NCBI GenBank assembly: GCA_041738755.1
Contig: JBGSPE010000005.1
Coordinates: 3,522 to 67,521, forward strand
DNA from: Minisyncoccia bacterium
Lineage (GTDB): Bacteria > Patescibacteriota > Minisyncoccia > Phycocordibacterales > UBA918
Direction of reading: 5' to 3'
DNA: 64,000 nucleotides
The translations under genes were made by a program, and so were the position numbers. The notes under the pieces were generated by a model that was not told the origin of the DNA, searched no databases, and worked only from the letters and a program-made list of their open reading frames with translations. Numbering within the stretch: position 1 is the first letter of the stretch; each line of letters begins with the position of its first letter. Positions 17,305-63,976 of the stretch are shown piece by piece.

Positions 17305-17970
17305 ATGAAGTTACTTATTGTTGAAGATACTGAAAAACTCGCCAAGTATTTGAAGCAGATGCTGGAGGAGGAATCCTACGCAGTGGATGTGGTTGGTGAT
17401 GGGGAGACTGCCGAACGTCGTATCTTGGGTGGTTCTTATGATGCAATTATTTTAGATATCATGCTTCCCGAGCAAGATGGCATTACTACATGTAAGAACG
17501 TCCGAGCTAAAGGAAACACAACTCCAATTCTTATGTTGACCGCCAAAGGTGAAGTAGAAGATCGGATTGAAGGACTCGATAGTGGGGCTGACGATTACCT
17601 CATAAAACCCTTTGCGATGGAAGAGCTTTTGGCTCGAGTCCGCGCACTCTTGCGCCGTCCGACAGTCACCGTAAATGATGAGCTGTTGGTACGAGACGTG
17701 CAGCTTAATTGCAATACTCGTGTAGTTACAGTGGCTGGTGTACCAATTAGTCTAACATTAAAAGAGTACGCGATTTTGGAGTATCTGATGCGTAATGCCG
17801 GGCAGGTGGTCAGTCGCGAGCAACTCATTGACCATTGTTGGGATTTTGCTTACTGTGCTTTTAGTAATATTACCGACGTGTACATTAAGCAGTTGCGACA
17901 CAAATTAGGAGGTGATCATGAACAATATATTAAAACTATTCGCGGGGTTGGCTACACGTTTCAAGCGTAA
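17305..17970 (+). CDS. OmpR-family two-component response regulator
   Basis: Receiver domain (MKLLIVEDTEKL ... ILDIMLP ... LMLTAKG) plus a winged-helix trans_reg_C domain (YIKTIRGVGY). Confidence 0.9.
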   Translation: MKLLIVEDTEKLAKYLKQMLEEESYAVDVVGDGETAERRILGGSYDAIILDIMLPEQDGITTCKNVRAKGNTTPILMLTAKGEVEDRIEGLDSGADDYLIKPFAMEELLARVRALLRRPTVTVNDELLVRDVQLNCNTRVVTVAGVPISLTLKEYAILEYLMRNAGQVVSREQLIDHCWDFAYCAFSNITDVYIKQLRHKLGGDHEQYIKTIRGVGYTFQA

Positions 17971-18949
17971 CGAGTTTGAACGAGCTACTTTCATACTCAC
18001 GTTTTATTACGTCTTTTCAACGGCGGTAATTTTGCTGGTGAGTAGTGTTGCAGTTTTAATTATTTTTGCACCTCCTGAAACCGAAGTGCCATTTAGAACT
18101 GAAACCGAAACGCAGATAGAGATTGAGCATGACGATTGGAGTTTGTATGAAATACGTGAGCACTTAGTGTCAGTGATTCTTATTGTTGATGTACTTATTC
18201 TTTTAATAGTCAGTATATTTGCATATTTCTTTGCCCGGAGGACACTCTTGCCGATTCAGAGGATGCACGAACGGCAGCGTCAATTCCTCGGTGATGTTGC
18301 ACACGAGTTACGAACACCGCTTTCGGTACTTCTAGCGGGAGCTGATACTGTTTTGCGACATGAACGATCCGTGCCCGAATATCAACTATTTGTAGCTGAT
18401 GTTCATGAAGAAGCGACGCGTCTTACTCGGCTATCAAACCAACTCTTACAACTTCTTAAAGCTGGCGAAATAGAAATGGGTGAACCGAGTAATATACTGG
18501 TGTCAGTCGTATTAAGTCAGGAGATACGACGCTTTACTCCCTATGCAACTGAGCGAGATATTACCCTTGCGAGTGACATAATGCCTGGATTGACCACGTT
18601 TACACACCAAGATGCTCTCATTGAGATAGTACAAAATCTCCTCAAAAATGCCATTGATTATAGTAATCCTGGAGATAGTGTCACACTCTCGCTTGGTACT
18701 ACGCAAACCTCATTAGTGATTACAGTGGTTGACACAGGATCTGGTATTGACGCAAGTAAACAAAAAATGATATTTGATCGTTTTACAAAAGTAGATACTG
18801 CTCGCACACAGGGTAGTGACAGTGGTGCGGGGCTAGGGCTAGCAATCGTAAAAGCCTTAGTCAACAAGCTCGGTGGAGAGCTGGCTCTTAAAAGTGAACC
18901 AGGTATTGGTACAGAAGTGATAGTGATGCTACCTGTAGAGCATTCATAA
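17912..18949 (+). CDS. Sensor histidine kinase (two TM helices, HisKA, HATPase_c)
   Basis: H-box HELRTPLS, with N, G1 and G2 boxes (NLLKNAIDYS, DTGSGI, GAGLGLAIV). It overlaps the regulator gene by about 59 nt in another frame, so the start is uncertain. Confidence 0.85.
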   Translation: MIMNNILKLFAGLATRFKRNEFERATFILTFYYVFSTAVILLVSSVAVLIIFAPPETEVPFRTETETQIEIEHDDWSLYEIREHLVSVILIVDVLILLIVSIFAYFFARRTLLPIQRMHERQRQFLGDVAHELRTPLSVLLAGADTVLRHERSVPEYQLFVADVHEEATRLTRLSNQLLQLLKAGEIEMGEPSNILVSVVLSQEIRRFTPYATERDITLASDIMPGLTTFTHQDALIEIVQNLLKNAIDYSNPGDSVTLSLGTTQTSLVITVVDTGSGIDASKQKMIFDRFTKVDTARTQGSDSGAGLGLAIVKALVNKLGGELALKSEPGIGTEVIVMLPVEHS

Positions 18950-19004
18950 AATATTCATAGTTAGCCAGTAGGATATTAACCATACAAGGTAATCAATTTA
19001 TTTT

Positions 19005-19175
19005 ATGGCTCAATATGTTTGTTTAGAATGTGGCTGGATTTATGATGAAGTACTCGGTGATCCAAGTCGTGGCTACCCAGCGGGCACAAAGTGGGAAGAT
19101 TTACCTAATGATTTTAAATGTGCCGAATGTGAGACGATTAAAGGCGACACGCATATGTGGCAGAGGTTAGATTAG
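19005..19175 (+). CDS. Rubredoxin (56 aa; absent from the ORF track because it is under 60 aa)
   Basis: MAQYVCLECGWIYDEVLGDPSRGYPAGTKWEDLPNDFKCAECETIKGDTHMWQRLD carries the CxxCG...CxxC rubredoxin iron site with the conserved Y/W/F core. Confidence 0.75.
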   Translation: MAQYVCLECGWIYDEVLGDPSRGYPAGTKWEDLPNDFKCAECETIKGDTHMWQRLD

Positions 19176-19185
19176 TTGATAAATT

Positions 19186-19692
19186 ATGAAAAAAAATATT
19201 AGAAATGTAGTCCTTACCTTCGGTTTGATTACGGTAGTTGCTGTTGGCACTGCTCAGTTCAATATGAAGCAAGAAGCAGCTGCTGATCCCTTGTCTAAAA
19301 TATATGAAGTGGAGATGGAAAAGGCAGAAGAAGATTTGCGAGAGGTTCTAGCTGACCGACTTACCCTGCAGAGAAATGAAGTTGAAAATATTCAGGCATT
19401 AGAAAAAGTAAGATTGTTAGAAGAAGTAGAAATCGAAAAAGCGGTAGAAGCCGCAGCAATCTCGACAGCAAAAGATGCCTCTGCACGTCAGGCAGCAATC
19501 GAAGCTGCAGCTGAGGCAGACGCTAGACGTCAGGCTGCTGCAGTCGCTGCTCAGAAGGCAGATCAAGAGAAGGCAAATGAACTAGCTGCACAACAAGCAG
19601 CTGAAGCAAAAGCCGCTGAGATCGCTGCACAACAGGCTGCCGATTTGGCGGCGGCCGCACAAAGGGATGCTCGTCGATCACGTGCTAGTTAG
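19186..19692 (+). CDS. Membrane-anchored Ala/Gln/Glu-rich coiled-coil protein (TolA-like low complexity)
   Basis: An N-terminal TM helix, then AAQQAAEAKAAEIAAQQAADLAAAAQRDARR-type repeats. Confidence 0.5.
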   Translation: MKKNIRNVVLTFGLITVVAVGTAQFNMKQEAAADPLSKIYEVEMEKAEEDLREVLADRLTLQRNEVENIQALEKVRLLEEVEIEKAVEAAAISTAKDASARQAAIEAAAEADARRQAAAVAAQKADQEKANELAAQQAAEAKAAEIAAQQAADLAAAAQRDARRSRAS

Positions 19693-19815
19693 TCGTGCTT
19701 ATTAAATAATTTTAAACGTCTTCTGTGGGTGAATTTTAGGTATTTTAGCCTACGTAGTATTGTTTTGGGTACGGACTTTCTTGACCCTTTATAAATTGCA
19801 GTACATACTTTACTC

Positions 19816-19975
19816 GGATTCAGCGAAAGGAGGTCTTATGAAAAATACCACCAACTAAGAGCGGCAGATATCATGTGGTCCTAGCTAAAGCTCGGCTTGG
19901 CGCTACGGCGTTTGTGGACGCACGTGCGGTTCTCATTTGAGAATCAACCCCCGGAACATGTTTCCGGGGGTTTTG
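19816..19975 (+). ncRNA. Candidate small transcript or leader carrying a 6-codon uORF (MKNTTN) and a strong intrinsic terminator
   Basis: A putative promoter (TTGACC, 17 nt, CATACT) at 19781-19809. A consensus SD (AAAGGAGG) sits 5 nt before ATG AAA AAT ACC ACC AAC TAA (19838-19858). A structured GC-rich stretch follows, ending in a 9-bp GC hairpin with a T-run at 19948-19974. Confidence 0.3.
19948..19974 (+). terminator. Rho-independent terminator
   Basis: CCCCCGGAA-CATGT-TTCCGGGGG followed by TTTT. Confidence 0.8.
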
Positions 19976-20055
19976 CTATCTAAAAAGTTCTACTATCGTC
20001 CTAAACGACCGGCAAAGAAATTTCTACATATTCTCTGTCGATGCACGATTGAGTA

Positions 20056-20613
20056 TTGTGCGATACACTAGGGTCTAACATTTATTTTATGCACGTATCA
20101 TATTTTGAGGTAACCGTACCAGTTTTTAAGAAGAATCTCTTAATTGCTAAAGCCTTATTACAGAAAGGTCTTGAACACGCACTTCTGAGTGGCATTACAG
20201 AGGCGGTGTTTTTAGATCAGCGACTCGCTCCTGACATGTTTCCGCTCTTAAAGCAGGTGCAGATTGTGACTGATAGCGCGAAGGGTGCTAGTGCTCGCTT
20301 GGCAGGTGTCCAGGCACCAGCAATTGCTGATACAGAGACAACAGTTGCTGAACTTGTAGCTCGGATTGATACTGTCATCGCGTATCTTGATACGTTTACG
20401 CCCGACCAGTTTGAGCAAGCAGCTGAGCGAAAAATTGAACTGCCATATATTCCTGGTATGTACCAAACAGGTGCAGATTATCTGGTTGATTTTGTGCTGC
20501 CAAACTTTTTCTTCCATATGTCTATAATTTACGGATTGATTCGCTCACAAGGTGTGTCGCTCGGTAAGATGGATTTCTTGGGTAGTTTGAAATTACACCC
20601 TTTGGATTCGTAA
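20056..20613 (+). CDS. DUF1993 family protein
   Basis: Contains the RLAPDMFPLLKQVQIVTDSAKGASARLAG segment characteristic of DUF1993 helical-bundle proteins. The likely start is the internal Met at 20089. Confidence 0.55.
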   Translation: MCDTLGSNIYFMHVSYFEVTVPVFKKNLLIAKALLQKGLEHALLSGITEAVFLDQRLAPDMFPLLKQVQIVTDSAKGASARLAGVQAPAIADTETTVAELVARIDTVIAYLDTFTPDQFEQAAERKIELPYIPGMYQTGADYLVDFVLPNFFFHMSIIYGLIRSQGVSLGKMDFLGSLKLHPLDS

Positions 20614-20714
20614 TTGTATTAGTATCGAAAGATATTGATAGTTGGTTAGAAGAAATTTCTACTTAATGAGTCTAAAGTAAATAATAAATTTACATCACAA
20701 CTTAATTAAATCGC

Positions 20715-21164
20715 ATGAACGAAGATCAAATAAAATTAAAATCACTTTTGACTAGCTTGGTTGATGGTGATGACTATTACGCTATAGAACCAGCAACAAA
20801 AGAACAGATTGATTTATTTACTGACCGTGCGATAGAGAATGGAATTGAGCCTCTTGTCATTCAACAACTAGTCAATCTATATTCAGTAGCTAACTCTTTT
20901 AATTATGAAATAGTACTATCATTTCATAGTTGTGATGACATGATTATTTTTGAGTGGTGGGACAATAAAGAACTGTGGTTAGGTCAACGAGATTTTTATT
21001 CTATTCGCTATGTAAACGGTAAATTTTGTCTAGGTGATGCAAGTAATGTTAGCTTTTCTGACGAAGATCAATACGACACTCTAATTGGGTTAATAGAAGG
21101 ATGTATAAATCTAATTAATAAAGCAGATTATTTTGGTAAAAATAATACAGCTACAACAAATTAA
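20715..21164 (+). CDS. SMI1/KNR4 (SUKH)-like putative immunity protein
   Basis: 149 aa with SUKH-like topology: an N-terminal helix (ATKEQIDLFTDRAIENGIEPL), an aromatic core (IIFEWWDNKELWLGQRDFY) and FCLGDASN. The gene is strongly AT-rich compared with its neighbours. Confidence 0.4.
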   Translation: MNEDQIKLKSLLTSLVDGDDYYAIEPATKEQIDLFTDRAIENGIEPLVIQQLVNLYSVANSFNYEIVLSFHSCDDMIIFEWWDNKELWLGQRDFYSIRYVNGKFCLGDASNVSFSDEDQYDTLIGLIEGCINLINKADYFGKNNTATTN

Positions 21165-21215
21165 AGCTCGTAGTGATTAAGATAAGTAATTGCTCGCTTA
21201 AGGTATAATCAGAGT

Positions 21216-21731
21216 ATGAATACTATTGAAGATAATACCTGGAACGTTATTCCAGGTGCCGGACTTGGGCTGCTTGAGTTTGGCATGACACCTGCACAAG
21301 TGGCCGTGTTGATTGGGGCTCCGAAGAAAACACGTCCTATCTGGAATGGCTCAGGATTTAAAGAATTCCGAGATTTAGAACTACCAATTATCGGTTACGG
21401 TACAGACGGGAAGCTTAAAGATATCGAAGCTGGTTCACGAGTAATAGGTGTCTATTTTCACGATCTCAATATTTTTACTGAGGAGCCGGAGAAAGTGGTT
21501 AGAGTACTGCATGAGGCGAATGGTAAGGCGGTTCATTATGGCCTTGGGACATTTGCATTTTGGAATCTTGGTATTACGTTTGGTGGAATCTTTAACCAAG
21601 AGACAGAACGTTTCTATACACTCAAAGACTATTCAGAAGGGGAACAGGACGATAGAAGTTTGGCTGTGTGGCCCAAAAATGATCAGAGGTGGAATAATTT
21701 AAAATCCGAATTTACTGAGTTTAATTTATAA
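21216..21731 (+). CDS. Hypothetical protein (possible second immunity-type protein)
   Basis: 171 aa, no recognisable motif, adjacent to the SUKH-like gene. Confidence 0.4.
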   Translation: MNTIEDNTWNVIPGAGLGLLEFGMTPAQVAVLIGAPKKTRPIWNGSGFKEFRDLELPIIGYGTDGKLKDIEAGSRVIGVYFHDLNIFTEEPEKVVRVLHEANGKAVHYGLGTFAFWNLGITFGGIFNQETERFYTLKDYSEGEQDDRSLAVWPKNDQRWNNLKSEFTEFNL

Positions 21732-22019
21732 GAGTACTGTCATCAGCCAAATTAAAACTACAAATAGTAGTATTGCGGAAAAAACTCCGATAGTAATTCT
21801 TTTATAGTTAATCGTCTTAGAGTCAGAAGCGTGTTTTCTCAACATCCAGGGTCGTACGAAGAACCATACAATCGTTGTGATGGGTAGAATAAATAAGTAA
21901 AAAAATTGACGGCTGATTTCAGGAACGTCATTCCCGAATACTAATTCTAATATCCCTAATTCGTAAAAAATTACAAGAAGGCCAAGGCCAACAAGGATTT
22001 CATAATTTCTAGGTATCAT
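21726..22019 (-). CDS. Hypothetical small membrane protein
   Basis: Three predicted TM helices, AT-rich. Confidence 0.35.
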   Translation of the reverse strand: MIPRNYEILVGLGLLVIFYELGILELVFGNDVPEISRQFFYLFILPITTIVWFFVRPWMLRKHASDSKTINYKRITIGVFSAILLFVVLIWLMTVLL

Positions 22020-22149
22020 AGAGGTATGTAAAAGTATACCATTTTATGATTTCGACTTTGAAAATTTTACAATAAAACAAGATATGGTGTGGCCAGCATA
22101 AAATCTTTAAGGGGGTGTATAGTGATAGGGAGCTGACTTTAGCTGGTAA

Positions 22150-22590
22150 ATGACCTCGGTCAAAACTTATAGATACATAATTTCTTACAGTAACGTTATG
22201 AACAATCAACAAGCTGATGAATCTTCCAAGAGTCAATATAGAGTTGGTATTCGGTATAATCCACTTGAAATTGAAGATACCCAAAACATCTCAATTGCTA
22301 TTTTTGGCGCAAGACGTATTTTAGATGAATGGCGAGACTATCAGCATAGTCAGAAGCTACATAATCAGGAATTACTGTCTGAATATGAGGTGTTATCAGG
22401 GACTGTTAAAAGGTTGCAGACTAACATTGATTTACAAAATGATATCCTGAAAAGACAGACTACAGATACACCAGAAGAGTGGAATGTGCATGTGGAAGAG
22501 TTAAAACATCGAGCACATGAAATCATCGCTGACTTAGAAGCGCTTACTACAGATTTATCAAAATTTTATCTACCAGAAAATAACGAATAA
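22150..22590 (+). CDS. Hypothetical coiled-coil protein
   Basis: Helical and charged, no motif. The start is possibly at an internal Met (MNNQQ). Confidence 0.35.
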   Translation: MTSVKTYRYIISYSNVMNNQQADESSKSQYRVGIRYNPLEIEDTQNISIAIFGARRILDEWRDYQHSQKLHNQELLSEYEVLSGTVKRLQTNIDLQNDILKRQTTDTPEEWNVHVEELKHRAHEIIADLEALTTDLSKFYLPENNE

Positions 22591-22754
22591 CTAGTACTGT
22601 TGTGAAAATGGATGATTGAGGATTACCTGTGAGTACGAGATATTACAATGGTTCGCTTACTGGGATTATATATGTAGCCGTTTGAGATGGAGATATATCT
22701 TTAGTGCGAAAAAATAACTGAGTAAATAGCAATAATTTTAAGATACTAGGCAAT

Positions 22755-23588
22755 GTGGTACTCTACAGTAATATGAAAAATATCAGTGTTATTGTAGGAG
22801 CATTATTATTTATAGGTATAGGGGGATGGTTTTTATTCACAGCGAGTGATTCACAAAGTCCTGAAGAAACTCCAAACCCTGGGGTATCAGTCATGGAGTC
22901 TACCTCAGGAACTGAGATTACAACTCAAGATGGCCTGGCGTACTTTCCAGAATCGAGTGGATTCTTGGCAGAACCAAGTGCACCGGGAGATTATCCGGGA
23001 GTCGTCATGATTCATGAAAACCGTGGCTTGCGGCCTGAAGTTAAACAAGCCGCCGAAGAACTCGCTCGTGAAGGCTATCGTGTACTTGCCGTTGATTTGT
23101 ATAAGGGTACGGTAATGGAGACACAAGAAGAAGCCAGAGCCTATCGAGATAAATTTAATCAAGCTGAAGGACTTGAAAACATGCAAGCTGCGGTACAGTA
23201 CTTGAAAGATAATGGTTCGACCAAAATTGCTTCACTTGGCTGGTGTTTTGGTGGTAAGCAATCCGTTGATTTGGCAATTTCAGGCACACCGCTTGATGCG
23301 ACGGTGGTGTACTACGGTGGCGGCATGGCAACTTCAACTGAACAGCTTGCTCCTATCTCGTGGCCAGTCCTAGGTATTTTTGGAGATCAAGATGCCATCA
23401 TCCCGGTTGCTATGGTCCGTGACTTTGAGACTTCACTTGATACACTGGGGATTGAAAATGAAGTATATCTTTATGAAGGAGTTGGTCATGCGTTTGCCAA
23501 TCCATCAAATTCAGACTTTGCACCAGAAGCTACGGAAGAAGCGTGGGCACGAACGTTGACGTTCCTTGAGACTCACCTAGGAACTTAG
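22755..23588 (+). CDS. Dienelactone hydrolase family protein with an N-terminal membrane anchor
   Basis: DLH fold with a nucleophile elbow (GWCFGG) and a downstream D/H region (DQDAIIP, GVGHAF). Confidence 0.8.
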   Translation: MVLYSNMKNISVIVGALLFIGIGGWFLFTASDSQSPEETPNPGVSVMESTSGTEITTQDGLAYFPESSGFLAEPSAPGDYPGVVMIHENRGLRPEVKQAAEELAREGYRVLAVDLYKGTVMETQEEARAYRDKFNQAEGLENMQAAVQYLKDNGSTKIASLGWCFGGKQSVDLAISGTPLDATVVYYGGGMATSTEQLAPISWPVLGIFGDQDAIIPVAMVRDFETSLDTLGIENEVYLYEGVGHAFANPSNSDFAPEATEEAWARTLTFLETHLGT

Positions 23589-23616
23589 TTACAAGAGTGA
23601 TGCACTAGAGCATATA

Positions 23617-23645
23617 AAACTGACCCTCATTAGGGTCAGTTTTAT
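23617..23645 (+). terminator. Rho-independent terminator
   Basis: AAACTGACCCT-CATT-AGGGTCAGTTTT. Confidence 0.7.
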
Positions 23646-23706
23646 ACTATTTCTATACCACTATGGTACTCGTCAGATAAGCAGAGGCTCAGTATAATAA
23701 AAAAAT

Positions 23707-24162
23707 ATGAATAATAAAATTCTCGCAGCGTTGGGGTTGGTTATCGTACTATCAATTGTGGCTGTCTACCGAGTACAGCAATATTCGGCTCAATCTGACG
23801 TACTGGTTTTGCCACAATCAGTACCTGTTGAAGGTTCGGACGTAGGCACGGAGGTTTCTCCCGAAGAAACAGTAGCCGTAACCGAACGATACCGTGGTCA
23901 GATAGATAGAGTATCCGTAGAATTTGAGCAGAATGATTTTACCAGGTATCAACTCGTTACAAACGGTGTAATTCGTAGTGGTGAACTTAATACAGAGCGA
24001 GGGTTTGCGGATGATGAAAACGCTACTGTCTATGTAATAGATTGGCAACAGCCAGAAGCGGAGCAGTTGCGGTATGTCAAACTAACAGCCGAACCAACGA
24101 GACTCTACTTGCTTAATACTGATGGCGAGATTGTTCGCAGCAGTGTATTAAACTTAGAATAG
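23707..24162 (+). CDS. Hypothetical secreted or membrane-anchored protein
   Basis: N-terminal signal or TM segment. No motif. Confidence 0.45.
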   Translation: MNNKILAALGLVIVLSIVAVYRVQQYSAQSDVLVLPQSVPVEGSDVGTEVSPEETVAVTERYRGQIDRVSVEFEQNDFTRYQLVTNGVIRSGELNTERGFADDENATVYVIDWQQPEAEQLRYVKLTAEPTRLYLLNTDGEIVRSSVLNLE

Positions 24163-24225
24163 TCCCACATCGTTTGGGTATTGCGATTAAACTTTCATCA
24201 GGGTTTTTGCTGATATACTAATTTT

Positions 24226-25251
24226 ATGATTAAAAATTATACGGTAGCTGTGTTCGCTATTACTCTCGTAAGTACGGTACTGTTCCCAACTACGTTTACT
24301 GAAGCAAGACACACTGATCGTGAGGAAGGTTCGAGTGAGCGGTATGAGTCATACAGCCGGGCAATCAATCGGCTTGATGATGATATCGTTGAGGATTTAT
24401 TCGTCCCGTTGTTGTTTGGAATTAAGCTTAACAGCATCGTCTCTGATTTTGGTGATCCGCGCGGAGGAGGGACAAGAGAACATGAAGGGCAAGACTTGAT
24501 TGCTCCCTTAGGTACACCAATTGTTACTCCGACTGAGGCGGTAGTGACAAGAATAGGAACGGGAGAAAGCGCAGGGAAGTATGTCTATACCAGAAACCCC
24601 GGTGGTGAGACCTTTCGGTACATGCACCTTGATGCGTTTGCAGATATAGATGAGGGTGATGTTTTGGAAGCGGGAGATTTTATTGGAACGGTAGGTGATA
24701 CGGGTAACGCTATGGGTGGAGTCGCTCACCTCCATTTTGAGATTCGGGATGAAGAAGCGTTAGACCCCTATCCGCGAATTACGGTTGAGCTCACGTTAAA
24801 AGAGAAGATGGAATTGGTGGAACGAATGTTTGAAAATCTCGATGATGCTGATGAAGTGGCTGAATTTTTGACAACATCACACACAGCTGATTTTAGGACT
24901 GCTCTCAATGCCGGATATGACCTGCCAGAAGAAATTACCGAAGCTTTAGAAGAGAGGGGTATTGTGAGCGTTGCTGATCTTGTGGCTCAACTCGAACGTA
25001 TCATCGATTCAATCCCAACGGTTGTTACGAGTGAACTTACGCTTGGTTCGCAAGGTACCTCAGTGAGTCTTATGCAGACATATCTCATATTCACCCAGAC
25101 TGGCCCGGCGGTAACCGTTCTTAAGTCAGCTGGTGCAACAGGGTACTATGGTCCTGTGACGGCAGCTGCTATCCGGGAATATCAAACCAGTGCAAAACTT
25201 CCAGTAACAGGAGTGTATGATGTCGCAACCAGGGCGGCTATGATGGAATAA
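24226..25251 (+). CDS. M23 (LytM) family metallopeptidase with a C-terminal peptidoglycan-binding domain
   Basis: M23 motifs HEGQDLIAPLGTPIVTP and HLHFEI. The C-terminal PG_binding_1-like repeat reads LTLGSQGTSVSLMQTYL...GYYGPVTAAAIREYQ. Confidence 0.85.
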   Translation: MIKNYTVAVFAITLVSTVLFPTTFTEARHTDREEGSSERYESYSRAINRLDDDIVEDLFVPLLFGIKLNSIVSDFGDPRGGGTREHEGQDLIAPLGTPIVTPTEAVVTRIGTGESAGKYVYTRNPGGETFRYMHLDAFADIDEGDVLEAGDFIGTVGDTGNAMGGVAHLHFEIRDEEALDPYPRITVELTLKEKMELVERMFENLDDADEVAEFLTTSHTADFRTALNAGYDLPEEITEALEERGIVSVADLVAQLERIIDSIPTVVTSELTLGSQGTSVSLMQTYLIFTQTGPAVTVLKSAGATGYYGPVTAAAIREYQTSAKLPVTGVYDVATRAAMME

Positions 25252-58426: not shown

Positions 58427-60085
<1,659 letters not shown>

Positions 60086-60113
60086 GGCCACTGTTTTCAG
60101 GTCTGAACAGTAG

Positions 60114-60142
60114 AAAAAGTACCCATACTTGGGTACTTTTTC
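60114..60142 (+). terminator. Rho-independent terminator
   Basis: AAAAAGTACCCA-TACT-TGGGTACTTTTTCTTT. Confidence 0.75.
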
Positions 60143-60211
60143 TTTGCAGATAAGTAGAAACTATTGTGGTATAATGTAAACACTATTGGTTAGTAATTTT
60201 GAACAGAATCT

Positions 60212-60790
60212 ATGAATTGGATTATTTTAGGAGTCATTGCAGTAGCTGTGTTGTACGCAATCTATTTGTATAACAACTTTGTTAAGTTGGTACAACGAGT
60301 GAAAGAAGCATGGGCTGATATTGATGTGCAGTTGAAGCGACGATATGACCTCATCCCAAACTTAGTTGAAGCAGTAAAGGGGTATGCGTCTCACGAGCGA
60401 GCAGTCTTTGACGAAGTAACAGAAGCTCGAGCCAAAGCCACCCAAGTTCACGTTGACCCAACCAACATAACAGCTGAACAAATCACCGCTATGGCTGGAG
60501 CTGAGTCAGCGCTTGGTGCATCACTAGGGAAGCTTTTGGCGGTGGCTGAAGCCTATCCAGACCTCAAAGCCAATGAAAACTTTGCGCAACTACAATCAGA
60601 ATTGGTTGACACCGAAAACAAAATTCAAGCTGCGCGACGATTCTATAACGGTAATGTACGAGATCTCAATATTGCACTTCAATCATTTCCTTCAAATGTT
60701 GTTGGAAAGACATTTGGCTTCAAGGGCGAAGAATATTTTGAATTAGCAGAAAATAGTGTTGAAAGAGAAGTGGTGAACGTAAGTTTCTAA
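60212..60790 (+). CDS. lemA: LemA family protein
   Basis: N-terminal TM helix plus a LemA helical domain (VQRVKEAWADIDVQLKRRYDLIPNLVEAVKGYASHER...RRFYNGNVRDLN). Confidence 0.85.
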   Translation: MNWIILGVIAVAVLYAIYLYNNFVKLVQRVKEAWADIDVQLKRRYDLIPNLVEAVKGYASHERAVFDEVTEARAKATQVHVDPTNITAEQITAMAGAESALGASLGKLLAVAEAYPDLKANENFAQLQSELVDTENKIQAARRFYNGNVRDLNIALQSFPSNVVGKTFGFKGEEYFELAENSVEREVVNVSF

Positions 60791-60796
60791 CCAGAC

Positions 60797-61180
60797 ATGT
60801 CTGAAATAACCCGGGTCTATTACAACAAGCTTGTCCGTGACAATATCCCGGGTAAGATTGAGGCCAAACATGTTGCCTGCGACGTCAGAAAAATTACTGA
60901 TGCCCAGGAACTGCAGCAGGAACTTCTCAAGAAAATTAAAGAGGAAGCCACGTCGCTCTCGATGGCACGAACAAGAGAGGAATTTCTAGAAGAATACTGT
61001 GATTTATTAGTGGTCCTTGAGACACTCATGTCTCAAATTGGTCTTACCAAAGAAGAAACCCTTGAGGCCAGGAAAGAAAACCTGCTTCGCAAAGGTGCGT
61101 ATAAACACGGGTATTTCCTCCATTGGTCTGCCGATGTTGGATATCAATCAAATGAAACTCCTCAAGGTGTACCCTTGTAA
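60797..61180 (+). CDS. MazG/HisE-like all-alpha nucleoside triphosphate pyrophosphohydrolase
   Basis: YYNKLVRDNIPGKIEA matches the N-terminal signature of PRA-PH/MazG-like house-cleaning NTP pyrophosphatases, followed by a conserved E-rich helix (EEFLEEYCDLLVVLE). Confidence 0.6.
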   Translation: MSEITRVYYNKLVRDNIPGKIEAKHVACDVRKITDAQELQQELLKKIKEEATSLSMARTREEFLEEYCDLLVVLETLMSQIGLTKEETLEARKENLLRKGAYKHGYFLHWSADVGYQSNETPQGVPL

Positions 61181-61184
61181 CATA

Positions 61185-61208
61185 AAACAGCCCTTGAGGG
61201 CTGTTTTA
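61185..61208 (+). terminator. Rho-independent terminator
   Basis: AAACAGCCC-TTGA-GGGCTGTTTT. Confidence 0.7.
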
Positions 61209-61223
61209 TAATAAAAAATCTTT

Positions 61224-62924
61224 ATGAAAAAATTACTACCACTTTTTATTTTCTTCGTACTTCTATTAGCTGGTGCCGTGGAAGTCCAGGCTGAAGTAAT
61301 TAAAGACTTTGATGTCAGTTATACCGTCAATCAAGATGGTACAGTCGATGTTAAAGAAACTATTGTCTATGATTTTGAAAGTGAGGAGCGGCGTGGGATT
61401 TTCCGCATACTAAAGAATACCCACCCGCAACCAGCAACCGCATGGTACAAGAGTCGTGAAGTGGTAACGCAAGTAGAAGGGGTGACTAAAGATACTAGTT
61501 CAGAACCGTTTGTCGTAACCGAATCTGGCTCTGAGCTAGAAATTCGGATAGGTGACTCTGATGTGTATCTGACCGGTGAACATACGTATGAGATTAGCTA
61601 TACACTCATCGGAGCGCTTTCTAGTGGTCCCGAGGGAGCAGAATTTTACTGGAATGTAACTGGTGCTGACTGGCCCGTCACCATCAATCAAGTGGGTGTC
61701 GTCGTGAATAGTGATCGTGAAGGAGTGATTGCAGAACAGGCCGCCTGTTATGTTGGAGACACCGGAAGTCAAGAAGCCTGCCTCTCAATTGAAAAAAATA
61801 ACTTTAATGTTTTGTTTGAAGCCGCCACCCTTGCCCCAGGCGAGCAACTTACGATTGCTGTGGAGTTAGACCCAGCGCAAGTTGCAATCGTTTCTTTTGA
61901 AGAAACCTCGTACTTACCGTTTGGGTTTGGCTTACTGGCGTTATGGTCACTTTATTTTGCTTGGCGGTTATATACATATCTCATAAGTGAACGACTCAAC
62001 CTACCAATAATAGCTCAATATGAACCGTATGGTGAGTATTTGCCAATGTTTACCGGGGTATTAATGGACGGCAAACTTGATCCACATGATATTACCGCTG
62101 GGATTATGTACTTGGCTGAACAAGGATTTCTGAAGATTAAACGTATTGAAACTAAGAAGCTTTGGATATTTGATACGGTTGACTACGAAATCACCCTGCT
62201 TCGCCCGATAGCCGAAATCCCGACCGAATACCTCAAAACTTTAAGTGGACTATTATTCAAGAAGGAGGCACCAGTCGGAAAGTCTGTGACGCTATCTGAT
62301 TTAGAAGACAACCGCACTCAGAATTCGGTACTTTTGATAAAACTACAAAAAAACCTGCTCAAAGAGCTTAAGGTGACTGGTGTATTTACTGATGCACTAC
62401 CAAAATGGACCCTAACTCAGACAATAGTAGCAATAACTGTCGTCGTTATATTTGGTTGGTTTTTGTTTGTACCCGACGGAGTTGTTGTGACAGTGCTTGC
62501 AGTCATGGAGACATTCATTATCGGGTTAATAGGGTTAATTAGCTTTAATAATCGCCGGACAAAAAAGGGTTATGAGATTAAAAATCATCTTGAAGGATTC
62601 AAGTTGTTTTTATCAGTAACTGATAAAGAACGGTTTGATTTTCATAATGCTCCAGAAAAAAATCCGGAACTATTTATGAAGTATCTTCCATATGCGGTAG
62701 CGCTTGGGGTTGAAGAAAAGTGGGCTAAAGTATTTGCTGGAATTACGATTCCGCAACCTGAGTGGTATGACGGGGGAGGGGTAGCTACCTTCTCCGCAGC
62801 TGCTCTTACCAGTGACTTGTCTAATTTTTCAACTAGTTTTGCTACTAGTTCTGGAACTACTGGTTCTTCAGGCGGTGGATCAGCTGGAGGTGGAGGAGGT
62901 GGTGGGGGAGGCGGAAGCTGGTAA
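61224..62924 (+). CDS. DUF2207 family membrane protein with a poly-Gly C-terminal tail
   Basis: Signal peptide, an N-terminal beta-rich extracytoplasmic domain, TM helices, a cytoplasmic region and the terminal GGGSAGGGGGGGGGGSW tail typical of DUF2207. Confidence 0.75.
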   Translation: MKKLLPLFIFFVLLLAGAVEVQAEVIKDFDVSYTVNQDGTVDVKETIVYDFESEERRGIFRILKNTHPQPATAWYKSREVVTQVEGVTKDTSSEPFVVTESGSELEIRIGDSDVYLTGEHTYEISYTLIGALSSGPEGAEFYWNVTGADWPVTINQVGVVVNSDREGVIAEQAACYVGDTGSQEACLSIEKNNFNVLFEAATLAPGEQLTIAVELDPAQVAIVSFEETSYLPFGFGLLALWSLYFAWRLYTYLISERLNLPIIAQYEPYGEYLPMFTGVLMDGKLDPHDITAGIMYLAEQGFLKIKRIETKKLWIFDTVDYEITLLRPIAEIPTEYLKTLSGLLFKKEAPVGKSVTLSDLEDNRTQNSVLLIKLQKNLLKELKVTGVFTDALPKWTLTQTIVAITVVVIFGWFLFVPDGVVVTVLAVMETFIIGLIGLISFNNRRTKKGYEIKNHLEGFKLFLSVTDKERFDFHNAPEKNPELFMKYLPYAVALGVEEKWAKVFAGITIPQPEWYDGGGVATFSAAALTSDLSNFSTSFATSSGTTGSSGGGSAGGGGGGGGGGSW

Positions 62925-62971
62925 GCGGGCACGCTACGAAATTTCCCATTTTACGGTATACTAATTGAATT

Positions 62972-63874
62972 ATGGCAACACTGTATACACATCAAGGGGC
63001 AAATATCCGCAAGACGTGGCTTCTAATGACCTTCTTTTTCCTGATTGTGATGGTACTGGGTTACGTCGTATCTATCATTTATGAGAGTCCGATTATCTTT
63101 TATGTCGCTGTCCTCTTTGCGATTGGAATGAATATCACAAGCTATTGGTATTCAGATTCGTTGGTCATCAAAATGACTGGTGCTGTTCCAGCCTCAAGAG
63201 AAACCCATCGAGATCTCATTACTATCGTAGAAAATCTCTCAATCACCGCTGGACTACCAATGCCTAAGGTGTATGTCGTCAATGACATGGCTCCAAACGC
63301 CTTTGCCACCGGTCGTAATCCAGAGCATGCGGTCGTGGCAGCTACTACCGGTCTCTTGGCAATTCTTGATAAAAATGAGCTTGAAGGTGTCATGGCCCAC
63401 GAGCTATCTCATGTCGGTAACCGGGACATGCTCGTCTCAACGGTAGCTGTGGTACTCGCTGGCTTTGTGGCTATCTTGGCCGATATTATGATGCGTTCAA
63501 TGATGTTTGGCGGAAACCGAAGTGAAGATAATCGAGTTGGAGCTCTGTTTATTGTGCTCGGTGTTATAGGTATCATCCTTGCTCCAATTGCCGCCCAAAT
63601 GATTCAGCTCGCAATTTCACGCAAGCGGGAGTTTTTGGCTGATGCTTCAGGGGCTCTTCTTACTCGGTACCCAGAAGGCCTTGCTTCAGCCCTAGAAAAA
63701 ATCCAAAGTCATAGTCAGCCCATGCGGAGGGCTAATAACGCCACTGCCCACTTGTTTATTGCTGATCCGTTTGGAGATGATAAGCGTTCATTTGGACAAA
63801 AGATTTCAAACCTTTTCCAGACTCACCCCCCAGCTGCAGACCGGATTCGCATTTTGCGAAGCATGGATATGTAG
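62972..63874 (+). CDS. htpX: Membrane zinc metalloprotease HtpX (M48 family)
   Basis: HELSHVGNRD HExxH motif, four TM helices and a downstream Glu (ISRKREFLAD). Confidence 0.9.
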   Translation: MATLYTHQGANIRKTWLLMTFFFLIVMVLGYVVSIIYESPIIFYVAVLFAIGMNITSYWYSDSLVIKMTGAVPASRETHRDLITIVENLSITAGLPMPKVYVVNDMAPNAFATGRNPEHAVVAATTGLLAILDKNELEGVMAHELSHVGNRDMLVSTVAVVLAGFVAILADIMMRSMMFGGNRSEDNRVGALFIVLGVIGIILAPIAAQMIQLAISRKREFLADASGALLTRYPEGLASALEKIQSHSQPMRRANNATAHLFIADPFGDDKRSFGQKISNLFQTHPPAADRIRILRSMDM

Positions 63875-63889
63875 TATTCTATCTCTCAC

Positions 63890-63976
63890 GGAGAGATGGC
63901 AGAGTGGTTGATCGCGCTACCTTGGAAAGGTAGTATACGTGAAAGCGTATCGGAGGTTCGAATCCTCTTCTCTCCG
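63890..63976 (+). tRNA. tRNA-Ser (anticodon GGA), class II with long variable arm
   Basis: GGAGAGA acceptor pairing with TCTCTCC, anticodon stem CTACC/GGTAG with loop TTGGAAA, a long variable arm (TATACGTGAAAGCGTATC), a GGTTCGAATCC T-arm and a G discriminator. The D-stem contains a mismatch. Confidence 0.75.

Follow-up and report, generated by a model that had tools for sequence, protein, structure and literature searches.

A small AT-rich islet carrying two putative orphan immunity genes between a DUF1993 and a dienelactone-hydrolase gene

In the 64-kb stretch of DNA analyzed here (the window), the interval flanked by DUF1993 and dienelactone-hydrolase (DLH) genes is probably a small, composite and horizontally acquired islet, with two orphan immunity genes on the plus strand. 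The initial annotation had read this region as an AT-rich islet having putative immunity genes and no toxin, a core reading that was supported and strengthened by our analyses. We infer that both proteins would inhibit interbacterial toxins that enter the cell, by binding them and occluding the active site, with the resulting neutralization benefiting the cell; the target would most plausibly be a nuclease or another nucleic-acid-targeting effector, and the cell would make no such toxin from this region.

The GC content at positions 20614–22754 was 35.2%, compared with 44.3% for the whole window and 44.2 ± 2.0% (mean ± sd) for sliding windows of the same size, thus about 4.6 sd lower, which confirmed the AT-rich islet initially noted at ∼20.6–22.7 kb. 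The GC minimum of the 64 kb was found at position 20600, with 0.08% of same-size windows being this low. The islet comprised the entire DUF1993-to-DLH gap of 2.1 kb, with the GC fall beginning directly 3′ of the DUF1993 stop codon (20613), in an AT-rich intergenic spacer at 20614–20714 forming the left boundary, and stopping at the DLH start (22755), where host-level GC resumed after a second AT-rich spacer at 22591–22754. The flanking plus-strand genes were indeed those named earlier, as verified with Pfam for both DUF1993 (20056–20613; PF09351, E 3.5e-49; public call beginning at 20089, 174 aa) and DLH (22755–23588; PF01738, E 2.5e-46), and both were host-like in composition (GC 0.43 and GC3 0.39 for DUF1993; overall GC 0.46 for DLH).

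All four genes that had been claimed for the islet were present, encoding a 149-aa protein (20715–21164, plus strand), a 171-aa protein (21216–21731, plus strand), a 97-aa small membrane protein (21726–22019, minus strand) and a 146-aa hydrophilic helical protein (22150–22590, plus strand; publicly called as 130 aa from 22198). The GC content was uneven within the islet, as the composition differed among these genes. The proposed codon-usage check gave a divided result, with the 149-aa gene being clearly deviant (GC 0.31, GC3 0.20, ∼4.5 sd under the window's remaining 64 ORFs at GC3 0.412 ± 0.047), whereas the 171-aa gene was near the host (GC 0.42, GC3 0.36); for the 146-aa gene GC3 was 0.295. 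Because of the near-host composition of the 171-aa gene, the islet is not the product of one recent acquisition event.

The description of the 149-aa protein as SUKH-like held for its predicted fold and failed for sequence profiles. The predicted structure displayed the alpha+beta arrangement of SUKH proteins, with N-terminal helices, a beta-sheet and a C-terminal helix, and its Foldseek matches to SUKH were weak (E 0.1–1.5). The Pfam or profile match to SUKH or Imm families named in the initial annotation as a check was not obtained: the protein had no Pfam match at E ≤ 1, none of 53 members of its family was matched by the Pfam SUKH/Imm models, and hhalign of the family against SUKH-1 gave nothing (probability 0.3%, with the SUKH-1 profile being very shallow at 3 sequences). 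Profile searches of the PDB with the family likewise gave nothing significant. The SUKH superfamily of immunity proteins comprises SMI1_KNR4/SUKH-1 to -6, with examples including B. subtilis YobK and Bacteroidales I2 (Zhang, Iyer & Aravind 2011, PMC3113570); the family found here resembles it in predicted fold, while escaping all of its Pfam models (PF09346, PF14567, PF14568 and relatives) and having its own signature, FEWW...ELWLGQRD...FCLGDASN. The 149-aa protein was full-length, retained the residues that vary little or not at all within the family, and was acidic, without a signal peptide and cytoplasmic. As judged from the predicted fold, it is most likely a divergent SUKH-fold and putative orphan immunity protein.

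That role is suggested by the SUKH fold taken together with the immediate neighbors of family members elsewhere, which included genes for SMI1_KNR4 (L019, E 2.5e-19, recognized by the same Pfam models that missed the family itself; conserved in L014 and L018), Imm33 (L016, E 2.6e-28) and ankyrin (L023). A DMP19-like gene was also adjacent in one locus (L025), many other neighbors were unannotated genes or unrelated enzymes, and no recognizable toxin was adjacent, nor any conserved toxin partner, in the neighborhoods of the family. Combinations of SMI1_KNR4, Imm33 and ankyrin are those described for heterogeneous polyimmunity loci (Zhang et al. 2012, PMC3482391), and experiments have demonstrated that a T6SS nuclease can be neutralized by divergent orphan SUKH proteins (PMC12247911).

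The family comprised at least 120 clusters, mostly from Bacteroidota where named, with a patchy distribution across phyla and homologs at 60–74% identity in unrelated phyla. The closest homolog (74% identity) adjoined an IS1595 transposase and an integrase-like fragment. Family members were AT-rich with regard to their hosts in Armatimonadales (0.37 versus 0.60), Pirellula, Nevskia and the contig of the closest homolog, and agreed with host composition in low-GC Bacteroidota, the copies of which the GC3 of 0.20 in the window resembled. The nearest relatives of the flanking genes were a different set from those of the 149-aa gene. This family would be mobile and at home in low-GC Bacteroidota, within mixed immunity-gene arrays.

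The 171-aa protein, initially listed as an unknown, could now be placed as most likely a putative orphan immunity protein, and turned out to be the better supported of the two due to its TsiN-like fold and the fact that, in all four relatives with readable contigs, the gene followed a member of one DUF4123/VgrG-associated effector family, occupying the immunity position or the place just after it. In one of these loci (L037) the order was a VgrG-like gene (Gp5_trimer_C, 3.6e-6), a DUF4123 gene (1.7e-12), a gene for a 257-aa effector and then the 171-aa family member; a second (L040) differed from this order by a single additional gene, and in the remaining two (L039 and L042) the effector homolog was immediately 5′ of the family member. 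Such placement agrees with that of T6SS effector–immunity pairs, and tandem paralog arrays also occurred in this family. The predicted structure consisted of tandem helix and beta-sheet repeats, thereby fitting the BLIP/BamE-like fold group that includes BLIP, BamE/SmpA_OmlA, YfeY, YjgB/DUF4309, TsiN and BtiO. Like the 149-aa protein, the 171-aa protein was full-length and conserved at the (nearly) invariant positions of its family, and it was acidic, devoid of a signal peptide and cytoplasmic, with these latter features being what one would anticipate in inhibitors of nucleases that act in the cytoplasm (bioRxiv 10.64898/2026.09.22.753552); the two soluble proteins were unrelated by hhalign. 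Pfam searches with members of the 171-aa family gave matches to BamE and DUF7738 only, all sub-threshold, and PDB profile searches gave nothing significant. The identity to the context-informative relatives was only 30–41%, and their contigs all had a higher GC (0.49–0.71), for which reason the specificity of the 171-aa protein may have drifted.

In Acidovorax citrulli, TsiN confers immunity to the T6SS DNase effector TseN (PDB 9J9W; PMC12574953). The 171-aa family has no detectable sequence similarity to TsiN, which its profile missed in the PDB, and the 171-aa gene is an orphan within the window, without an adjacent cognate effector. Furthermore, TseN uses a DUF2169-type chaperone, whereas the effector linked to the 171-aa family uses a DUF4123 adaptor, which would load it onto the VgrG spike, and is not TseN-like by sequence. 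The linked effector, presumably toxic, is rich in Gly at the N-terminus, and its C-terminal domain, with LDSHHxPAKA, is conserved. A link of the L037 effector to TseN or other solved toxins was rejected, as matches were to low-complexity sequence only, and assignments to Tox-REHH or Tox-SHH were unsupported, with Pfam giving no match at E ≤ 0.1; its ‘SHH’ motif thus does no more than hint at an HNH-type nuclease.

Considered together, the two genes resemble heterogeneous polyimmunity loci and the acquired interbacterial defense (AID/rAID) loci of Bacteroidales (PMC12247911) in that structurally unrelated immunity-type genes are adjacent on one strand without a toxin, in DNA of foreign composition that differs from one relative to the next, and in having a SUKH family typical of Bacteroidota arrays. 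The islet differs from extended loci in having two immunity-like genes instead of at least four, so that the ‘array’ of immunity genes proposed earlier applies as a side-by-side pair, i.e. a minimal array. It also differs from AID/rAID loci in having no adjacent tyrosine recombinase (17305–25251) or repeats, and its host, perhaps a Patescibacterium, lies outside the Bacteroidales.

Immunity is not the only role associated with SUKH and BLIP/BamE-like folds, which are shared by proteins of other kinds including Syd, Smi1/Knr4, FBXO3, BamE, OsmE and YfeY. The islet could accordingly be acquired accessory DNA in which the two proteins are generic protein-binding, regulatory or chaperone modules with no link to toxins. 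We consider this unlikely, in view of the four out of four relatives of the 171-aa protein found downstream of the same VgrG/DUF4123-linked effector, the tandem paralog arrays of that family, the curated immunity families SMI1_KNR4 and Imm33 directly adjoining members of the 149-aa family, the acidic nature of both proteins, and the lack of signal peptides in both families, unlike the lipoproteins BamE, OsmE and YfeY.

The remaining two ORFs had no detectable relatives. The 97-aa protein displayed three TM-like segments by hydropathy, bearing out its description as a minus-strand small membrane protein; its gene is convergent with the 171-aa gene, with a 6-bp overlap, and it formed a singleton cluster. 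The 146-aa ORF was likewise present as noted (130 aa if translation begins at 22198), and a heptad pattern in its C-terminal half lent only moderate support to the coiled coil ascribed to it, which this part would possibly form. Its Pfam match to DASH_Spc34 was sub-threshold, and searches of Pfam, NCBIfam, PADLOC and PHROGs gave nothing significant for any of the four islet proteins. Both ORFs were longer than expected by chance for DNA of such composition (P ∼0.002–0.003; P ∼0.0025 for the 146-aa ORF) and are real-looking genes. The term ‘orphan’ for the genes of the islet thus held for these two in the sense of having no relatives, and not for the 149- and 171-aa genes. Relatives of the 171-, 97- and 146-aa proteins did not co-occur across 35 loci (L001–L035). 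The membrane and helical proteins would travel within the same AT-rich DNA. A phage origin was also considered and discarded, as viral contigs yielded no relatives of the 149-aa family or of the 97- and 130-aa ORFs.

With regard to toxins, the initial statement that no toxin gene is present held for what was covered: the ten largest ORFs of the window were all housekeeping genes, and searches by effector HMM and tblastn detected no member of the effector family of the 171-aa relatives in the 64 kb, nor a fragment of one. Pfam analysis of eight genes at 17305–25251 identified a response regulator, a histidine kinase, a rubredoxin, DUF1993, DLH and an M23 peptidase, and no recombinase or mobility gene. 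No tRNA gene was found at the islet (nearest ones at 13.5 and 63.9 kb), no rRNA gene in the window, and the direct or inverted repeats flanking the islet were only short and at chance level. As a genomic island, the interval hence showed deviant composition and, in relatives (L065 and others), a different content of the corresponding slot, and the hallmarks of a tRNA target, direct repeats and an integrase or transposase were lacking at the islet.

The absence of mobility genes and repeats would also be expected if the islet were the decayed remnant of a larger mobile element or toxin–immunity module (for example a prophage fragment, a polymorphic-toxin cassette or an rAID-like recombinase-associated array), with its genes being non-functional cargo in the course of being lost. 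The mosaic composition over the four genes, the two ORFans and the IS1595 transposase and integrase-like fragment beside the closest homolog of the 149-aa protein would agree with such decay. Each of the four ORFs was nonetheless undisrupted and exceeded the length expected by chance, the 149- and 171-aa proteins had retained full length and conserved family residues, and neither viral-contig relatives, where tested, nor any toxin fragment by effector HMM or tblastn were detected, making this explanation decidedly improbable.

A comparison with an empty site was attempted from both flanks. Using four close DLH relatives, synteny was not conserved, whereas the comparison worked from the DUF1993 flank with a locus having the same two flanking genes (L065), in which the 1.9 kb separating DUF1993 from DLH contained MsrB, MsrA and a small ORF at host-like GC. 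Other DUF1993 relatives in metagenomes (62–82% identity) had a different downstream neighbor in each case, without an AT drop after DUF1993. A foreign origin of the islet is thus indicated by this L065 slot together with the lowest GC of the window, the GC3 of 0.20 in the 149-aa gene, the patchy distribution of its family and the IS1595 element beside the closest homolog. That the AT-richness is instead native, reflecting lineage-specific, weakly expressed or young de novo genes with relaxed codon selection and a particular amino-acid content, would fit the variability of DUF1993 and DLH neighborhoods in all relatives examined, the near-host GC of the 171-aa gene and the two genes without relatives in any search, but is highly improbable considering the 60–74% identical homologs of the 149-aa protein in unrelated phyla, when the flanks have another set of closest relatives, its GC3 at the level of low-GC Bacteroidota copies and 4.5 sd from the host, and the foreign composition of its family in several high-GC hosts.

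Orphan immunity genes are an established defense against interbacterial toxins, and the concept as such is not new. The 149-aa family, with its at least 120 clusters, is however missed by current Pfam and NCBIfam models and would be overlooked in model-based censuses of immunity genes. For the 171-aa family, the recurrent order of VgrG-like gene, DUF4123 adaptor, effector and immunity gene provides a directly testable candidate T6SS effector–immunity pair, with neither the effector nor the immunity family having an annotation or a solved homolog. One could also propose, tentatively and with considerable doubt, that if the host is a Patescibacterium, an ultra-small and probably episymbiotic cell has gathered its immunity genes from donors unrelated to one another (one gene of a Bacteroidota-type SUKH family, the other of a family seen elsewhere next to T6SS effectors on contigs of higher GC), thereby surviving the nuclease toxins of its neighbors or those met at its own host cell while weaponless in this region, and that the 171-aa family with its partner forms an undescribed T6SS effector–immunity family with BLIP/TsiN-like immunity. 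Reduced-genome episymbionts would, with such a host, spend coding capacity on protection against contact-dependent toxins; no paper joining ‘orphan immunity’ with Patescibacteria was found in the literature searched. The one hint of the CPR-like host suggested initially was a DLH relative, at 60% identity, named Candidatus Paceibacterota. Scanning for promoters and terminators gave matches at chance level, and a terminator-like hairpin was located 3′ of DLH at 23613–23646.

The DNA at 20614-22754 had a GC content of 35.2%, as compared with 44.3% over the window as a whole. Equally long sliding windows gave a mean of 44.2% (sd 2.0), with the global minimum at 20600 and values as low in only 0.08% of cases, so that composition was clearly not uniform and the AT-rich islet proposed in the initial annotation at about 20.6-22.7 kb was borne out. 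The drop set in right after the stop codon of the DUF1993 gene on the left (Pfam E 3.5e-49) and ended at the start of the dienelactone-hydrolase (DLH) gene on the right (Pfam E 2.5e-46). All four open reading frames previously described were found here, encoding proteins of 149 aa (20715-21164, plus strand, GC 0.31, GC3 0.20), 171 aa (21216-21731, plus strand, GC3 0.36), 97 aa (21726-22019, minus strand, GC3 0.34; the small membrane protein, having three TM-like segments) and 146 aa (22150-22590, plus strand, GC3 0.295; 130 aa with start at 22198 in the public gene call). Set against the GC3 of the 64 other ORFs of the window (0.412 +/- 0.047), the composition of the islet is a mosaic across its four genes. 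The 97-aa and 146-aa ORFs, both lacking relatives, exceeded the chance length for such a composition (P ~0.002-0.003, 2000 first-order Markov simulations). The 146-aa product had been labelled a coiled-coil protein; a heptad pattern over the C-terminal half lends this only moderate support. Outside the islet, the lowest GC3 of any ORF (0.30) was that of a gene at 19186-19692. Its 168-aa product has no Pfam match; it is hydrophobic in an N-terminal segment and contains a long low-complexity region rich in Ala, Glu and Gln. Directly 3' of the DLH gene lies a likely intrinsic terminator (23613-23646), made up of a perfect inverted repeat of 15 bp around a 4-nt loop and a T-rich tail after it.

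The 149-aa protein had been called SUKH-like and placed among small orphan genes. It had no match in Pfam, NCBIfam, PADLOC or PHROGs models. Homologs were found in at least 120 clusters, at identities from 74% down to about 40%, and the gene is thus no orphan in the sense of lacking relatives; none of the 120 clusters carried a precomputed Pfam domain. The family alignment displayed the signature FEWW...ELWLGQRD...FCLGDASN. None of 53 members matched a SUKH or Imm Pfam model, a search of PDB sequences with the family profile gave nothing significant, and a profile-profile alignment to three canonical SUKH-1 neighbours, whose profile was very shallow, gave no match. In structure comparison of the predicted fold, SUKH structures scored best, namely YobK (8.8), Lin2918 (8.6), PSPTO_5518 (8.4), the SUKH domain of FBXO3 (8.4), the Bacteroides T6SS immunity protein Tdi1 (8.3), yeast Knr4 (8.1), Syd (7.1) and the Agrobacterium T6SS immunity protein Atu4351 (6.5), the next ones dropping to about 5. 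The top eight Foldseek matches were all Knr4 or Lin2918, with weak statistics (E 0.1-1.5, TMq 0.43-0.54). The SUKH assignment thereby stood with regard to predicted structure but not with regard to current sequence models, and we read these proteins as a probable divergent SUKH-fold family.

Scanning one genome per species, we found 22 loci of this family, mostly in Bacteroidota (Chitinophagaceae, Galbibacter, Gillisia, Tenacibaculum, Maribacter, Zobellia, Pseudozobellia, Sphingobacterium, Flavobacterium, Chryseolinea and Marinifilaceae), with scattered copies in Armatimonadales, Pirellula, Nevskia, Oscillospiraceae, Bacilli, Ozemobacteraceae and one acidobacterial MAG. In low-GC Bacteroidota the gene equalled its surroundings in GC content, whereas in high-GC hosts it was AT-richer (Armatimonadales, 0.37 vs 0.60 and 0.43 vs 0.59; Pirellula, 0.53 vs 0.62; Nevskia, 0.51 vs 0.64), as was the closest homolog relative to its contig (0.32 vs 0.42). 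An IS1595-family DDE transposase gene and an integrase SAM-like gene lie some 1.3 kb away from that homolog (74% identity, aquatic metagenome; L032:3910-6450, also contigs L033 and L034). Because of this GC distribution and the transposase beside the closest homolog, the gene appears to be a mobile one at home in low-GC genomes, a pattern that the window copy fits. The IS1595 transposase/integrase-like neighbourhood is a possible vehicle for its spread.

At many loci the gene lies in arrays of small genes packed tightly on one strand. A canonical SMI1_KNR4 gene (E 2.5e-19) follows directly downstream in Pseudozobellia, within an array common to four Flavobacteriaceae, and an Imm33 gene (E 2.6e-28) lies directly upstream in Maribacter; a DMP19-like gene is the neighbour in the acidobacterial MAG and an ankyrin-repeat gene in Pirellula, with unrelated neighbours at other loci. 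'Heterogeneous polyimmunity loci' have been described as combining SUKH, Imm33 and ankyrin proteins (PMC3482391). No conserved toxin partner was seen among the neighbours of the family, which would fit the promiscuity already known for SUKH proteins (PMC3113570; PMC12247911). The Flavobacteriaceae array (L019:2830-11872, also L014, L018 and L020) is operon-like and comprises an 892-aa protein without any Pfam domain, which could be an unrecognised polymorphic toxin, an LRR protein, three small unknowns, the 149-aa-family member, the canonical SMI1_KNR4 and further small genes.

For the 171-aa protein, a word-indexed search returned only the self-match. Exhaustive HMMER searching gave 95 relatives of similar length, the best at 41% identity and 24 at E <= 1e-10. 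This family showed sub-threshold BamE matches in 10 of 60 members, a few DUF7738 matches and, in the PDB, weak matches to beta-lactamase inhibitory protein (BLIP) over its N-terminus; no relationship with the 149-aa family was found. The strongest part of the case is the neighbourhood evidence. Contigs could be read for four relatives (P0245, P0247, P0246 and P0249), and on each a family member is encoded downstream of a gene from a single protein family, with nothing between in three cases and with one gene between in L040. These upstream proteins, candidate effectors (L037:1693-2466, L039:2-463, L040:2441-3223 and L042:407-976; mutual identity 47-58%), combine an N-terminal region rich in Gly with a C-terminal domain that is conserved, GVPGSKYxGGAH...LDSHHxPAKAxSPL...PAIxM..DH, and have neither Pfam match nor solved homolog. 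The SHH motif of this domain hints, by our inference, at a nuclease of HNH/EndoVII type. Tandem paralogs of the 171-aa family, three in L039 and at least three more in L040, have the usual look of immunity-gene expansions. Where contigs reach further upstream, genes for a DUF4123 protein (E 1.7e-12) and a VgrG-like protein (Gp5_trimer_C at E 3.6e-6, short of the Pfam cutoff) precede the candidate effector, and in L036 a ClpB/ClpV-like ATPase then follows. DUF4123 proteins are adaptors tethering effectors to VgrG, encoded beside effectors and downstream of vgrG (PMC11582642). Because of the effector-linked neighbourhoods and the tandem paralogs, we take the 171-aa family to supply the putative immunity proteins for a T6SS effector family not yet described. 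Its members resemble T6SS immunity proteins in fold and gene context, with no sequence link to any characterised one. The immunity-gene reading thus reaches a second gene, formerly only an 'unknown'.

We also compared the slot between DUF1993 and DLH genes in relatives. Around DLH relatives at 70-75% identity the neighbourhood was not conserved. On one metagenomic contig (L065), DUF1993 (79% identity) and DLH (68%) lie on one strand, 1.9 kb apart, with MsrB (PDB E 3e-37), MsrA (E 3e-59) and an 81-aa ORF between them at a GC content of 0.45-0.55 and no AT-rich dip; this slot (258-2175) also holds about 600 bp (343-925) of GC-rich DNA (0.50-0.56) without convincing ORF. A second DLH relative has an MsrA gene two genes upstream, and six other DUF1993 relatives with called downstream ORFs had a different gene after DUF1993 each time, at the GC content of the contig. 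Since relatives carry other genes without a GC drop, the slot is variable in this lineage and its AT-rich content peculiar to this genome, and the islet was likely acquired horizontally. Another DLH relative (L030:10-1649) has a gene for Barstar, an RNase inhibitor of immunity type, and two small uncharacterised genes just upstream of DLH; immunity-type genes may gather around the DLH gene in more than one genome. Two genes downstream of a DUF1993 relative (62% identity; L049:2217-7427), an open-ended ORF of >1737 aa encodes a giant protein.

No toxin gene had been noticed in the window, and this agreed with our searches: the candidate effector family was not found there (HMM of the four effectors and tblastn), and the ten largest ORFs were all housekeeping (topoisomerase I, RelA/SpoT, RNase J, GroEL, ABC-F protein, photolyase, citrate transporter, solute-binding protein, DUF2207 and ATP-grasp enzyme). 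A toxin-immunity pair is rejected, no toxin gene having come up in these searches. Among the genes on either side of the islet (17305-25251), which encode a two-component system, rubredoxin, DUF1993, DLH and M23 peptidase, neither a recombinase nor a transposase was seen; no tRNA gene lies near the islet and no flanking repeats rise above chance. An rAID or AID system is likewise rejected, there being no recombinase in that interval and only two immunity-like genes. Functionally, the islet would instead count as a heterogeneous polyimmunity locus, or orphan-immunity island, in minimal form.

From its composition, the folds and family memberships of its products and the contexts of their relatives, the islet would be laterally acquired cargo of genes with different histories, the 149-aa gene being a recent arrival of Bacteroidota type and the 171-aa gene older or from another donor. 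We consider it reasonably probable that these two are orphan immunity genes, in keeping with the reading of the islet as holding putative immunity genes but no toxin. Both proteins are acidic (net -15 and -7), and a signal-peptide-like N-terminus was seen in 0/53 and 0/60 aligned members of the respective families, which points to both soluble proteins acting in the cytoplasm. There they would bind incoming toxins and occlude active sites, with specificity, expression and benefit presumed likewise. The most plausible targets would be nucleases, because established SUKH toxin partners include these (PMC3113570; PMC12247911), because of the TsiN precedent and because acidic surfaces are typical of nuclease inhibitors (bioRxiv 10.64898/2026.09.22.753552). 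The 97-aa membrane protein might confer immunity to a toxin that acts on membranes, a notion that gained no support from the tests here.

The window holds no rRNA, and the only hint from the relatives to a CPR-like host was one DLH relative (60% identity) named Candidatus Paceibacterota. If the host is a reduced episymbiont, this would be a cell collecting immunity genes; a search of the accessible literature library found no paper joining 'orphan immunity' and Patescibacteria. The orphan-immunity concept itself is already known, and what is new are two unannotated families and a candidate T6SS effector-immunity pair, as concrete testable leads. With regards to gene order, the related contig L052 (5925-10730) keeps that of the GroEL region of the window (58427-63911), four of the genes having 56-83% protein identity, but has DUF1993 placed beside it, and genome order has therefore been rearranged between relatives.
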